Below the pieces are notes generated by a model, which searched no databases, had not been told where the DNA came from, and saw only the letters and a list, made by a program, of their open reading frames with translations. A stretch of DNA of 64,000 bases from Eledone cirrhosa (lineage: Eukaryota), in assembly GCA_964016885.1 (NCBI GenBank), contig OZ024742.1, positions 189,968,001 through 190,032,000 on the forward strand, read 5' to 3'. The translations under genes were made by a program, and so were the position numbers. Within the stretch, counting starts at the first letter, position 1; every line of letters begins with the position of its first letter. Below are positions 1,211-61,043 of this stretch, piece after piece.

Positions 1211-2774
1211 TATATATATTATATATATTATATATATATATATATATATATATATATATATATATATATATATATATATTATATATATATATATATATAT
1301 ATTATATATATATATATATATATTATATATATTATATATATATATTATATATATTATATATATATATATATATATATTATATATATATATATATATTATA
1401 TATATTATATATATATATATATATATTATATATATTATATATATATATATATATATTATATATATATATATATATTATATATATATATATATATTATATA
1501 TATATATATATATTATATATATATATATATATTATATATATATATATATATATATATATATATATATATATATATATATATATTATATATATATATATTA
1601 TATATATATAATATATATATATATATATATACATATATATTATATATATATAACGAAGGAAATGTGGTAAGGAACCAGGTGGACCATAACGCACCAAAGT
1701 ACTCAATACTTAGGGTAGTAGAGTGGGTAATAGGAACAAGTAAGACCCCGACGGCTGAGCTCAAGCCGTTTCGACGGCTAATTCTGTTCGCATTAGCCGT
1801 GGAAACGGCTTGAGCTCAGCCGTCGGGGTCTTACTTGTTCCTATTATATATATATATATATATATATTATATATTATATATATATATATATATATATATA
1901 TATATATACATATATATTATATATATTATATATATATATATATATATATATATATATATATATATATATATATATATATATATATACATATATATTGTAT
2001 ATATATATACATATATATTATATATATTATATATATATATATATATATATACATATATATTATATATATATATATATATATATATATATATATATATACA
2101 TATATATTATATATATTATATATATATATATATACATATATATTATATATATATATATATATATATTATATATATATATTATATATGTTATATATATATA
2201 TATTATATATGTTATATATATATATATATATATTATATATATATATATATATATTATATATATATATATATATATTATATATATATATATATATATATAT
2301 ATTATATATATATATATATTATATATATATATATATATATTATAATATAGATGAGATTCTACTCCGATTCAACCCGGAATAACGTATATATATTATATAT
2401 ATATATATATATATTATATATATTATATATATATATATATATATATTATATATATTACATATATATATATATATATATATATATATATAATATTATATAT
2501 ATATATATTATATATATATATATATATATATACATATATATTATATATATATATATATATATATATTATATATATATATATATACATATATATTATATAT
2601 ATTATATATATATTATATATATATATATATATATATATATATATATATATATATATATATATACATATATATTATATATATATATATACATATATATTAT
2701 ATATATTATATATATATATTATATATGTTATATATATATATATATTATATATATATTATATATATATATATATT
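1211..2774. repeat. (TA)n microsatellite field containing two small inserts (1653-1846 and 2350-2384)
   Basis: Direct reading of the sequence. Confidence 0.95.
1653..1846 (-). mobile_element. Short foldback insert, probably a 5'-truncated PLE 3' end with an inverted arm
   Basis: A ~55-bp near-perfect inverted repeat (1728-1846, loop tctgttcgc) plus an unpaired 75-nt tail (1653-1727), with TA on both sides. Confidence 0.6.
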
Positions 2775-4642
2775 ATTTGGTGTGGTTGTCTTTTGGACTC
2801 CAGATATAAGCTGAAAGTGATGTCATATTCCTTCTTAGAGGGTAACGAAAAGAATGGGTATGCATGTAAAGACGCTGCTTGAAACTATAGGCCCTACGGG
2901 ACGTGGGTGTTACAACCTTACATTTGTAGACAATGTTACTAGAGAGGCATTTCCGGATAGGGAGCAATCAGCCCGATTCCTACAATTACAGTTAGTACTA
3001 ACTACAGGGTTGCACGTGTTCCTACGGCTATGTAGTTTAGCTAATTTGAAGCTGTGATGTTATGTGCAAGGTTAGGAGTCGTAGAGTAAGTAATTTTAAT
3101 AGTATTTCTATTAAAATTTTACTATATTTATGTGTAAGTGGAAAATGCTTCGTAATAATGGCCACCTCCATATTATATGGTGGGTTATACCAACAAATGC
3201 GACGGGATCTATTTCTTCTAGGTCTATTTTCGTACTCTGTATATGCTACCTTATCGACAAATCCACTTCGAGCAAGAGCTTCATCGTAATGGTCGTTGAA
3301 AATGCGCTCGTTGGTGGAAAGACAGAAAAGCCTCAACGAAACGTTTCTTACCAGGTTCTTGGTTATGCTGGCAGGATGGTTGGAATGCTTACTTATGTAA
3401 TTAAGCGTATCATTCGGCTTTCTATACGGGTAATACAACCCATTCAATAAATTGAGGGTAACGTCGAGGTAATTAACGACCGAGAGATTGGCCTCAACCT
3501 GTATAGAGTGGTTGAAGCCTTTAAAGAAGGCTGTGAGTTCTTTTCTGAACCTGTCTCAAGCACGAGTTCCGCACTTAGTCATGGTCAAAAGACCATCGTC
3601 ACGGTACAAAACCACCGCCCGCGTTGGGGAATTCGTCCTTGATAGAGAAAAGAAGGAAAAGGCCAATAAGTTCAGTAACCTCCGCAGAGTCACTGGCGCC
3701 CATACTCACGTCGAATGGGGTACTATTGGATTTTTTAATCCAAATAGAGTCGTCGAAATTAATCACCGACTTTCGGGCATTGGGGATGACATCAACTTCG
3801 AAATCCTTAACCACTGTGAGTGTTTTAGCGAAATTGATAGCTCTAAGGAGAAGTGGTAAAGTGATGGAGGAGTAGTAATTGTTGATGTCGAATTGGATAA
3901 AACGGCAATTTTCCTTGTTAAGTATGCCGTTGAACCAATCAATCACCGCGAAAGAATTGTTCCACAGTGCAAGAGGTGCCAAACTTCTAATTTCAGGTAT
4001 AATTCTATCAAGAATCGTTTTACTAAGTCTACCTAAATCGGACTTCGTAGGGTTAATAAGCCGAATAGAGGGGTTGTTCGGAAAATTGGATTTGTGATCC
4101 TTCAGGGTAAAGTGGAGAGAAATAGGGTCCAGAGGTTCGGTCCGGTCCAGGATGTTGAGATCAGATGTGATTTTAAACCCAGCATCGTTGATTTCATTGA
4201 TGACGCACCGATTAGTTTTACGGTAATCCTTAGTTACAGCATTATGTAGTAGTTGATGGTAAGTACTGCGCTCCACTTGATATAGGTTGCCAGTTTTGTC
4301 GGAATGGACGTGCACGGCGTTAGAATCTTTAATAGAACGAATTCTATTCTTCAGGTCTTGCTGGAAGGAATTGCTCCTATTCCGAAATTTGATACTCCGA
4401 ATGAGTTCCAAGACATCATTTTCGAAGGGTAGCAATGCTGGGTTCCACGGGGGGTTATTATAGGTTTTAAATCCAAATTTATCCTGTTTGTTGTCTGCTT
4501 TTCGCGGATTATCGAAATAAAAGGCACGCCAACGCAACCTTTTAATGAACGCGTCTGTTTTCTGTATCAGGAGTTTTAGGTATGTTTTCCTGCTTGGTAC
4601 GGGTATGTTCTTTGTAGAAATATTCAGATGTTGTTTCTGCAT
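2775..4642 (-). pseudogene. PLE reverse transcriptase + GIY-YIG endonuclease, frameshifted
   Basis: ORFs 3599-4642, 3037-3447 and 2773-2967 are consecutive pieces. The YIG motif is deleted and the C-terminus runs into (TA)n. Confidence 0.88.
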
Positions 4643-5335
4643 GATGAATATAAGTCAGTAGAGTGCTCAACCGAGGGAGCCAAATAGTAATAATAATAAA
4701 TTTGAAGACTAAAATCCAAAGAGGGCTCGATAAGGATAAATATATATCAAATATATAAGAACCGTAGAGCAAATATTTATTAAAATAACAGATTAAAGTT
4801 TAAGCAAAGAATCGCTGCTTTCACCCTTAACGGGATCTTCTGAAACTAGCAAAGTCAATCTGTAAACGCAGAACTGGATATTTCAAAAAACGTTGCAACC
4901 GGAGGAAGACAGGAAGACGATACTTTGGTTCGTGGTAACGTTCGCTGGCAAAGAACGGGAAAAAACGAATAATTAATAGGAGCGGTGAAAAACAATTACG
5001 CGCAAAGACAGAACCACGTTTATGGTATAAAAGAGGTCGTAGAATAATGTTCTCTTAGGTGGTGCATAGAGACGTTCTCTGGCAATGAACGAAAAAACGA
5101 AGATAATACGTCATATGTGGAGCGTGGAGAACAATAGCACGCAAAGACAAAACCACGTAAATGGTATAGCAGAAGTCGTAGACTAAAATTCTAACTAGGA
5201 GACCAAATGAATCTCCGCTACAGAGTTAAGAACAAAGTAAATAAATACAATACAGAAGTAATATAAATAAATAAATACATACACTTGCGTATGCTTGTGT
5301 TTGTACGTATTTGTTTGCGTGTATGTATTTATTTA
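2775..5335 (-). mobile_element. Penelope-like element 1 (Naiad-type), degraded and 3'-truncated
   Basis: RT ORF with KNIPVPS..FIKRLRWRAF, FIQFDI and FDVSMGASDSA; downstream frames give WYNPPYN and a partial GIY-YIG (IVYKC..FKQRL..H.HSF..TSLSAYIW). The 5' non-coding region is repeated at 5810-6178. Confidence 0.9.
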
Positions 5336-5809
5336 TTTTATATATATTATATATATATATATATTATATATATATATATATATTATATATATATATATAT
5401 TATATATATATATATATATATATTATATATATATATATATTATATATATATATATATATATATATTATATATATATATTATATAATATATATATATTATA
5501 TATATATATATATTATATATATATATATATATTATATATATATTATATATATATATATATTATATATATATATTATATATATATATATACATACATATAT
5601 ATACACATATATATATTATATATATATATATATACATATATATATATATATATATACATATATATATATACATATATATATATATATTATATATATACAT
5701 ATTATATATATATATATATATATATATAAATATATATATATATATATATATATATAATATATATATATATATATATATATATATATATATATATATATAT
5801 ATATATATA

Positions 5810-59685: not shown

Positions 59686-59879
59686 ACTTTTGATTTAGGC
59701 ATAAGGTAAACAATGAAATCGACTCCACTGCGTTACTGGTACTTTATTTGATCGACCCCGTAAGTATAGAAGGCAAAGCTAACTTCGGTGGAGTTTGAAA
59801 TCAGAACGCAAAGGGCCGTAACTCTATTCCGCAAAGCATGGTGTCCGACGTTCTACTGATACTGCCAACCCACCGCCCT
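59686..59879 (-). mobile_element. tRNA-derived SINE
   Basis: Same family; head ...tgatactgccaacccaccgcc. Confidence 0.85.
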
Positions 59880-60249
59880 AAATTAAATAAATAATAAAAT
59901 AAAAACAAAAATAAATACAACAAAGCAGAAAAAAATGTAAGAAAAACAGATTTAAATCGATATTGTTTTACTGGAAGGCCTTAGAACATTGTTATTAGTT
60001 TAATTAATATTTCAGGTGACAAATTGAGATACAGTAACAAGAAATTATAAATGACCAATGAGATTTTGACATGGCTTTTCTCTCATTGACGGCGTATCTC
60101 TCATGCGTGCGTATCGGATTTAGTCATAATTTATTTCACATAGAAATTACTTCTACTAAACTAGAACTGTTATATTCGTTTGAAATTATCAGGATGAATT
60201 AAATAGTTCTATTCACACCTCTTTAACTGTGCTCTCTTTGGAAAACCTT

Positions 60250-60322
60250 TCTCTCTCTCTCTCATATATATATATATATATATATATAGATAGATAGATA
60301 GATAGATAGATAGATAGATAGA
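60250..60322. repeat. Compound microsatellite (CT)n(TA)n(TAGA)n
   Basis: Direct reading of the sequence. Confidence 0.95.
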
Positions 60323-61043
60323 TAAATCTACCAAAATATACGGTAGTGTCCAATCCGTATGAAGAACTCAATGTAATCCAAATATCATGAAAAGAGAAGA
60401 TGCATTCAAAAATTTTCGATGAAAATCACAGGAAAACAGAGTCAAGATAAATTAATAAAAACAATGAATAAAAACAAAGAACAAGTTACTTATATTAAAA
60501 AATTCATCATTTTACGATCGTTTCTAGGATATATATGTGTGTTGGTATGTATATCATATAGATCTATGTAAAAATATTACAAACTATCAGAGGAAATATA
60601 CATACCTTCACATATGTATGCTGTCTTCAGAAATAATGAGATTTGTTTATTGAAAAAAAAAACAACAAAGATTTAATATAATATATCTGTTTGGGAACCT
60701 ATTATATTAAATCTTTGTTGGTTTTTTTCAATAAACAAATCTCATTATTTCTGAAGACAGCATACATATGTCAGAAAGGCCCTTGCCATTCTGAGTTCAA
60801 ATCCCGCCGAGGTTAACTTTGCCTTTCATCCTTACGGGGTCGATAAAATAAAGTACCAGTAATTGCTGGCCTTGTGCCTAACGTAGAAACAATTATTTCT
60901 GAAGACAGCATATATATGTGAAGGTATGTATATTTCCTCTGATAGTTTGTAATATTTTTACATAGATCTATATGATATACATACCAACACACATATATAT
61001 CCTAGAAACGATCGTAAAATGATGAATTTTTTAATATATGGAA
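60320..61043 (-). mobile_element. Foldback PLE-like terminus; the arm is interrupted by a SINE
   Basis: ~60466-60683 is inverted against 60700-61040 once the SINE is removed. The ~145-nt tail is homologous to 30195-30328. Confidence 0.65.
60772..60891 (+). mobile_element. 5'-truncated SINE with a 28-bp TSD
   Basis: B box gagttcaaatcc. TSD attatttctgaagacagcata(c/t)atatgt at 60744-60771 and 60892-60919. Confidence 0.88.

Follow-up and report, generated by a model that had tools for sequence, protein, structure and literature searches.

The 64,000-nt stretch of Eledone cirrhosa DNA analysed here (GenBank assembly GCA_964016885.1, contig OZ024742.1, positions 189,968,001 to 190,032,000; hereafter the window) consists largely of (TA)n crowded with inserts. 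The best named homologue of one encoded protein comes from an octopus, in keeping with an octopod host. Seven structures among these share a general layout: two arms stand head-to-head with the RNA 3' ends facing outward, and one arm is longer than the other, which leaves an unpaired tail. Across the copies sampled in the 3.0-Gb assembly, the outer ends of such arms lie almost invariably at one of two family-specific sites, a short arm-end site (S) and a tail site (T), and an insert typically combines one of each. We consider it probable that a dimer of the reverse transcriptase (RT)-endonuclease of Penelope-like elements (PLEs) cuts (TA)n and primes complementary DNAs (cDNAs) at T and at S in one RNA, and that repair joins the two products. 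The families are designated A, PLE2, F (three copies in the window), H, G, B, B', C (a 473-bp array) and D (310-bp arrays). The term pLTR denotes the PLE end region, and names of the form L373 or L475 refer to genomic copies outside the window. Coordinates are collected in Table 1.

It had been proposed from the window alone that each RNA carries two fixed priming points, in which case the outer ends should be constant among copies and the fold points variable. The genomic copies bear out the original prediction on both counts. Copies were located by exact patterns lying inside the arm, which makes position-ordered samples blind to end type. Genome-wide, these patterns match 27,482 times for A (a 22-mer), 108 times for PLE2, 6,577 for B, 19,686 for D, 26,828 for F, 16,366 for H, 4,124 for G and 7,668 for C. 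Counts of ends and pairs combine position-ordered hits, pair regions and bystander copies and leave out similarity-ranked hits, which favour query-like copies; similarity-ranked loci are included in the counts of target duplications and arm reach given below. Of 391 terminal arms, 375 lie at one of the two sites, 192 at S and 183 at T, and the other 16 end elsewhere (one D arm scored as T is a miscalled internal rearrangement). The first 30 position-ordered hits of each PLE family yielded 14 S and 16 T for A (one 10 nt short), 14 S, 14 T and 2 just before S for PLE2, 14 S, 15 T and 1 other for F, 13 S and 17 T for H, and 15 S, 9 T and 6 other for G. All 42 terminal arms of B are at S or T, and 21 of them stop in this genome sample at the very base at which, as had been noticed, both window arms halt (23807 in B, 31207 in B'). 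In family A, a C-to-G change that seemed specific to one arm proved to be a ranking artefact: it has 81 matches genome-wide, and the 30 that were read divide into 21 S arms and 9 T arms. In L032 and L253 (PLE2) and in L453 (G), the final 11-12 bases of the element are reiterated at T or S ends; these reiterations resemble abortive re-priming or telomerase-style slippage.

The two sites are used as a pair. Of 126 head-to-head pairs, 111 are S+T, seven T+T and one S+S, while one end is unclassified in the other seven; compared with an independent 50:50 choice of ends, the 111 S+T pairs among 119 classified ones correspond to p ~1e-24. Four of the seven T+T pairs are internal tandem junctions with the true outer end further out. 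Reading by hand gave S+T for 11 of 11 fold-backs of array D, for 15 of 15 resolved fold-backs of family B (one was unresolved) and for both complete fold-backs of family C. The inner joints of D and B differ from copy to copy, with overlaps of up to 16 nt or inserts of up to 16 nt. Those of A are clustered, 33 of 35 unbiased S+T inserts being 133-203 nt long. At L201, L205 and L209, the sequence upstream of the family A arm reads as a hammerhead core with a U3-A8 swap and a lengthy insert in stem II; the fold of most short A inserts lies within that stem, and the core is missing from them. Some long arms begin exactly where the preceding unit has its T site, or halt near the S site of that unit (window position 8663; L239, L379). 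The arm limits of L239 and L379 look as if extension along a tandem RNA had been stopped at the start point of the partner cDNA on that RNA. As counter-cases, other arms cross those S and T points, and the phases of D and B are without clear clustering.

Target duplications were scored where the (TA)n flanks contain a break and are thus informative. Fifteen of 67 informative S+T inserts carry a duplication in register, compared with 4.8 +/- 1.7 in a control with flanks swapped between inserts (maximum 11 in 200 swaps). The duplications are 10-15 bp long and all seven families contribute; the family H fold-back of the window, the pLTR end of a Hydra-type PLE, shows an in-register flank duplication of 15 bp. 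Read from the flanks, these duplications point to a staggered cut, each overhang of which would be joined to an RNA start site.

How far the arms reach bears on how they were made. Of 168 PLE S+T fold-backs, 27 have a tail-less arm that outreaches the tailed one in the 5' direction by 40 nt or more, 21 show the reverse, 106 have two roughly equal arms, and 14 are unresolved. In the 27, the tail-less arm extends by up to 2.5 kb, into the open reading frame (ORF), and has no internal tail (L235, L377, L475, L487, L488). Subfamily alleles of the two arms are the same in 49 and different in 16 comparisons in A, and the same in 64 and different in 7 in B. Judged by these alleles, one RNA or sister RNAs would be the usual template, and later conversion from arm to arm is possible. 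An alternative origin starts from a single cDNA with its priming point at T, which would copy itself after folding back (or antisense RNA would prime itself), the second end being trimmed to S by endonuclease. Near-equivalents have been published, namely self-priming (PMC3846280) and a tail that results from endonuclease resolution (PMC8557442). Such copying also predicts S+T pairs, and it accords with the 106 near-symmetric fold-backs, with the alleles common to both arms and with an identical exact palindrome at the centre of 5 of 29 S+T inserts of H. Yet a copied arm can contain nothing that is missing from the first one. Because each arm of the 27 asymmetric inserts holds sequence that its partner lacks, neither can have copied the other; therefore simple snap-back or self-priming is excluded for those copies, unless a switch back onto the RNA is added, but not for the symmetric ones. 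Arms of mixed subfamilies exist as well, and we regard fold-back copying as an unlikely general route.

A bulged hairpin begins 7-17 nt after S in all four Hydra-type families (A, PLE2, G and H) and after T in all three that are testable (PLE2, H and G); in the background it occurs at 3 of 773 positions. Its position after both sites speaks against another alternative, in which nothing but annealing between TA-like parts of the RNA and a primer from nicked (TA)n sets the ends, with no protein-defined sites. Most S and T ends do overlap the target by 1-9 TA-like bases, and the S sites of D and H lie in TA-rich stretches. However, the B and D monomers contain further TA-rich runs at which no arm ends (S or T accounts for 42 of 42 B arms), several ends overlap by merely 1-2 nt, and annealing alone predicts no coupling of S with T. 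This makes ends set by annealing only very improbable.

The end sites, their S+T pairing, the head-to-head layout, the duplications and the sequence proper to each arm can be read from the DNA; we infer that the protein acts as a dimer, how it cuts, by which route repair proceeds and that D, B and C employ PLE protein. In the two-site priming that we favour, the GIY-YIG domain would introduce a staggered cut of ~12-15 nt into (TA)n, and both cut DNA ends would prime cDNA on the element RNA, one at T and the other at S, which lies 26-130 nt upstream of T. Both cDNAs would be started within the RNA, with 1-9 nt of TA-like pairing, by a dimer of the protein bound to a single RNA or to sister RNAs, the template being a tandem, multimeric or circular RNA. 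Each cDNA would end at a variable point, and repair would unite the two 3' ends across small overlaps or inserts. The tail would correspond to the RNA stretch between the two starts, and short hairpin inserts would arise when both cDNAs stopped early.

Several observations weigh against this mechanism. An in-register duplication is absent from 52 of the 67 informative inserts, which is explained solely by an assumed slippage of (TA)n. In the majority of fold-backs (similarity-ranked loci included) the arms are nearly equal, and snap-back copying would account for these just as well. Contrary to a strict one-RNA model, no fewer than 3 of 37 A pairs combine arms of different subfamilies, and single-arm inserts amount to 9 of 25 in B and 2 of 13 in D. 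The bulged hairpin, taken as a strict motif, is absent after S or T in D and B and after S in F. Arrays D, B' and C show no nucleotide match to the seven PLE copies tested, and no PLE partner for the arrays emerged from this comparison. A single contig, within its first 50 Mb, supplied most of the sampled copies. Finally, the proposal of one priming point for each target strand is suggested by the head-to-head layout and the target duplications, but the anole PLE enzyme gave no strand difference, that is, no strand-specific start site, in vitro (PMC11167929).

Families D, B/B' and C carry the same S/T footprint as the PLEs. Their monomers (310 bp in D, 461-469 bp in B/B', ~466-473 bp in C) are arranged in tandem and contain one type I hammerhead motif each; the longest ATG frames comprise 30, 64 and 64 aa, respectively, and no PLE coding sequence is attached. 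Unit numbers range from 1 to more than 30. Target duplications of 12 and 14 bp in D and of 10 and 12 bp in B represent four cases among nine informative ones (D and B). As far as these features go, the three families fit animal retrozymes of the non-long-terminal-repeat (non-LTR) type, and they are likely to borrow the integration machinery of PLEs. A recent preprint (bioRxiv 10.64898/2026.07.22.740005) raised the possibility that retrozyme arrays result from local satellite growth of an old PLE end and were not inserted as arrays. Unequal exchange could extend arms after insertion with the ends kept, and the wide range of unit numbers agrees with it; but at each dispersed array the S and T ends are fresh, the joints and target duplications are its own, and PLE coding sequence is lacking. 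Because of these ends, joints and duplications, each array locus would have begun as an RT insertion of retrozyme RNA, with later local growth possible, and we give satellite growth as the origin of the arrays only a slim chance.

The arms of the D array are 100% complementary across 3362 nt (45032-54366); therefore the array is either very young or homogenised. D closes on itself as a single 340-nt contig in two runs of unspecified kind, as would be obtained from a circle as well as from a tandem array. A D monomer with one change is present in runs filed under other organism labels. Horizontal spread of D, considered in view of these many labels, was rejected: three of the four runs examined also contain family A and the host short interspersed element (SINE), and thus likely derive from the same or a close species. 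C and B are distant relatives (72-80% patches) with similar tail lengths (~60-66 nt). In the window they are fused (21048-23807), with the T site of C at the outer left, the S site of B at the outer right, two joints, and a switch from C to B at 23259/23260. The fusion may represent a single insertion from two different retrozyme RNAs.

The claim that coding and non-coding elements share a mechanism is sustained insofar as the same footprint is found on coding PLEs and on D, B/B' and C; the assignment of A, F, H and G to the non-coding side has to be abandoned. Longer genomic copies of all four continue into RT-GIY-YIG frames (for A: L231, L232, L241, L242). By this continuity, the four short inserts are truncated ends of protein-coding PLEs and not separate non-coding RNAs. 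Because A, F, H and G belong to ORF-bearing PLEs, the comparison of coding with non-coding elements rests on the three array families only.

A single ORF with RT followed by a C-terminal GIY-YIG domain spans 710 aa in A (frameshifted near the start), 821 aa in H, 913 aa in PLE2 (unbroken in copy L373) and 521 aa in the partial frame of G. Copy L483 likewise has an unbroken frame of a Hydra-type PLE. A Pfam GIY-YIG match was obtained for PLE2 only (E 2.5e-4, just short of the cut-off), and RT was identified through a YRDD motif and tblastn, with no Pfam RT match. The translations of A, PLE2, H and G display a DKT motif (not visible in the partial G frame), a CxCx5C linker, and CxxC and CxH around a conserved E and N. 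All four families sit in (TA)n and have an inverted 5'-truncated copy, a one-ended tail and a short target duplication; partial tandems occur in PLE2, H and G, and none were seen in A. The pLTR contains a hammerhead motif in PLE2 and H; in A, a U3-A8-like core is recognised by eye and missed by a strict scan, and none was found in the pLTR of G. Judged by the translations, the (TA)n targets and the insertion layout, A, PLE2, H and G are taken as Hydra-type endonuclease-bearing (EN+) PLEs. F, for which the translation of L475 reveals RT, a C-terminal GIY-YIG domain, a CX4CXXC linker and CCHH, and whose pLTR has a hammerhead by eye, is taken as an EN+ PLE of the canonical clades, with Neptune and Nematis as the candidates, and not Hydra-type.

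That the fold-backs are assembly or library artefacts is hardly credible: the window does contain a false-looking duplication across a gap, and palindromes are a known type of chimera, but chimeras cannot produce asymmetric fixed ends, S+T coupling, flank duplications or SINEs inside fold-backs, and contigs of a separate sequencing run (X2) cross an A joint with several joint lengths. Fold-backs of family A exist beyond this assembly. Read support is thus found at the level of the family and not for the fold junctions of the window itself; no sequencing run listed contains the D joint of the window in full, and none of those runs is on record as RNA. Two further candidates were rejected. Miniature inverted-repeat transposable elements (MITEs) and Foldback DNA transposons need symmetric terminal inverted repeats and a fixed structure, whereas the tail here is one-ended and the interior differs per copy. 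In L1 twin priming, both target strands prime on the RNA, which results in an inversion inside the target duplication. In L1, the annealing site of the second primer is internal and varies, and the two halves have no overlap, in contrast to the fixed, close and internal starts found here, where the halves duplicate the same 3' region and poly(A) is absent.

All seven structures with an inverted arm and an unpaired tail that had been described for the window are present where they were placed. The proposed tail sizes hold for A, PLE2, F (~55-58 nt), B', H and array D (26-35 nt, a range set by how TA microhomology is counted). For G, the proposed 145 nt fails as a family value: the S-to-T distance is ~122-132 nt (about 125 nt) in the family, and the 143 nt of the window copy (60321-60463) reflect an arm end eroded by (TG)n. 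Likewise, an arm stop ~45-50 nt past the hammerhead cleavage site is found in PLE2 (47-51 nt) and approximately in H (37-46 nt), and does not extend to a general rule, the distances being ~17-20 nt in A (by eye), 129 nt in D, 226 nt in B and ~150 nt in F (by eye). The cut was therefore rejected as a common ruler for the arm end. Since the distance varies between families (~17-226 nt), the ribozyme does not set the arm end.

Table 1. Positions of the fold-backs, arrays and PLE2 parts in the window.
Feature	Position	Strand	Details
Family A fold-back	1653..1846	-	tail 1653-1727 (75 nt); arms meet near 1785; S end ~1842-1846; 3' end (pLTR) of Hydra-type PLE, truncated within its hammerhead
PLE2, entire	8542..13413
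PLE2 inverted short arm	8542..8664	-	ends at S
PLE2 RT and C-terminal GIY-YIG coding region	8659..11426	+	frameshift split near 10.7-10.8 kb
PLE2 minimal type I hammerhead motif	13224..13268	+	predicted cut after 13261; Rfam Hammerhead_1 31.7 bits, below gathering score 34
PLE2 tail (S to T)	13313..13413	+	~100 nt
Family F fold-back 1	13603..13837	-	tail left; pLTR end of second-clade PLE, CX4CXXC linker
Family F fold-back 2	14827..15034	+	tail right
Family F fold-back 3	25285..25408	+	second copy ~38777-38899 in duplicated block
Family C, 473-bp hammerhead monomers, head-to-head	21048..23260		T end 21048; joint 21884; right end fused to B, not at own S
Family B element	23259..23807		joint 23650/23651; S end 23807; hammerhead 23367-23438 (-); left end fused to C
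B' fold-back	30546..31209	-	tail 30546-30616 (71 nt); one 469-bp monomer; hammerhead 30821-30891
B' inverted arm	31063..31207		ends at S; B' fold-back recurs ~43468-44130
310-bp hammerhead array D	45032..54366		~19 units (-) ending at S left; ~11 units (+) ending at T right; joint 51007/51010
Duplicate left part of array D	32112..35603	-	cut off by N gap 35604-35803
Family H fold-back	54728..55099	-	tail 54728-54813 (86 nt); hammerhead in each arm, cut after 55053 on +
Family G fold-back	60321..61065	-	tail left; SINE inside at ~60772-60891; pLTR end of Hydra-type PLE
G-relative fragment	30197..30324	-	tail only, 82% identical

The block at 22.4-35.6 kb recurs at 35.9-48.6 kb across the N gap, with 2761 of 2984 informative 40-mers in common, and for this reason the window copies of F, B, B' and the 310-bp units are not independent. 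Inserts of the doubled 13-kb block (22358-48600, gap 35604-35803) are near-identical; the doubling is likely either a false duplication or a recent tandem duplication. The SINE within the G fold-back (60744-60919) is bounded by a 28-bp direct repeat, so the fold-back is older than the SINE. At 62172-62831, a 47-bp unit occurs 14 times and is apparently derived from the SINE end. Two further decayed Hydra-type PLE copies lie on the minus strand (2780-5329 and 15650-18627), and 5825-6172 repeats part of the first. More TA-embedded repeats with terminal redundancy are located at 398-1201 (period ~600 bp), 15063-15616 (~520 bp, with a minus-strand hammerhead-like motif), 27493-27969 and 2353-2383; they may be candidate retrozymes or PLE ends. 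Fragments of non-LTR reverse transcriptase broken by TA tracts, which we take to be RTE/CR1-like, are found at 6331-7932 and 19558-20433, the second being inverted internally near 19956. Rfam microRNA matches in the window, all under their gathering scores, were dismissed as chance hits to palindromes. For annotation, the findings mean that by-products of PLEs, rather than MITEs or microRNA hairpins, account for tens of thousands of this genome's short palindromes.

Beyond the families of the window, we tentatively advance a wider reading, which is possible without being the expected outcome: coupled two-site priming, with a dimer that reads two RNA hairpins, starts a cDNA on either cut strand and needs no separate second-strand start, would be standard across at least two PLE clades; animal retrozyme arrays would enter the genome in one piece by this very step, as mirror-image multimers whose template is circular or multimeric RNA; and two retrozyme RNAs could share one insertion, as in C+B. 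The PLE signature of inverted copy plus tail and the existence of two internal start sites are already known. Our literature search, which extended to main texts and largely to freely accessible papers, came upon neither a strict S+T coupling nor this footprint on retrozyme arrays.

An inverted copy with a one-sided 30-40-bp tail is typical of PLEs (PMC8557442; PMC3846280). EN+ PLEs described there resemble the present elements in the head-to-head inverted copy, the tail at one end, partial tandems, a pLTR hammerhead motif (in PLE2 and H), target duplications (8-10 bp in rotifer PLEs) and microsatellite targets. They differ in tail length, 55-130 nt in the PLEs studied here compared with the published 30-40. 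Moreover, the published tail is optional and attributed to endonuclease resolution or self-priming, whereas S+T pairing is all but strict here, and RNA was the template of both arms in no fewer than 27 copies. With the Hydra clade (PMC8557442, section 11), families A, PLE2, H and G share the C-terminal GIY-YIG domain, DKT, the CxCx5C linker, CxxC/CxH and (TA)n targets; their units of ~3.6-4.8 kb, owing to long 3' untranslated regions, exceed the published size of generally less than 3 kb.

Animal non-LTR retrozymes likewise consist of tandem non-coding monomers (310-473 bp here) with a type I hammerhead, target duplications (noted as longer than 4 bp in PMC7229834) and a proposed dependence on PLEs (PMC7229834; bioRxiv 10.64898/2026.07.22.740005), and non-autonomous Chlamys PLEs with head-to-tail copies are known (PMC8557442; PMC9977147). 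The 2026 preprint ties retrozymes to PLEs via co-occurrence and pLTR similarity, and its main text does not contain the terms 'tail' or 'target site'; in our case no pLTR similarity was found to the seven PLE copies compared, and the link is the insertion footprint. Found on protein-free hammerhead arrays, this footprint provides mechanistic evidence, independent of sequence similarity, for animal retrozymes as passengers of PLEs.

A close enzymatic counterpart is the Poseidon PLE of the green anole, for which both strands were cut and extended in vitro in 2024, with two internal starts bracketing the tail (PMC11167929). AT-rich target, starts independent of the ribozyme cut and a predicted dimer are common to both systems. 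Poseidon belongs to a different clade, the main text of that report describes neither a strand difference nor site coupling, and no non-coding substrate was used. How PLEs, the closest mobile relatives of telomerase, complete integration and what gives rise to their inverted copies and one-sided tail are called open questions in PMC8557442 and PMC11167929; the near-strict S+T rule with RNA-copied arms renders this step directly testable by the existing in vitro assay.

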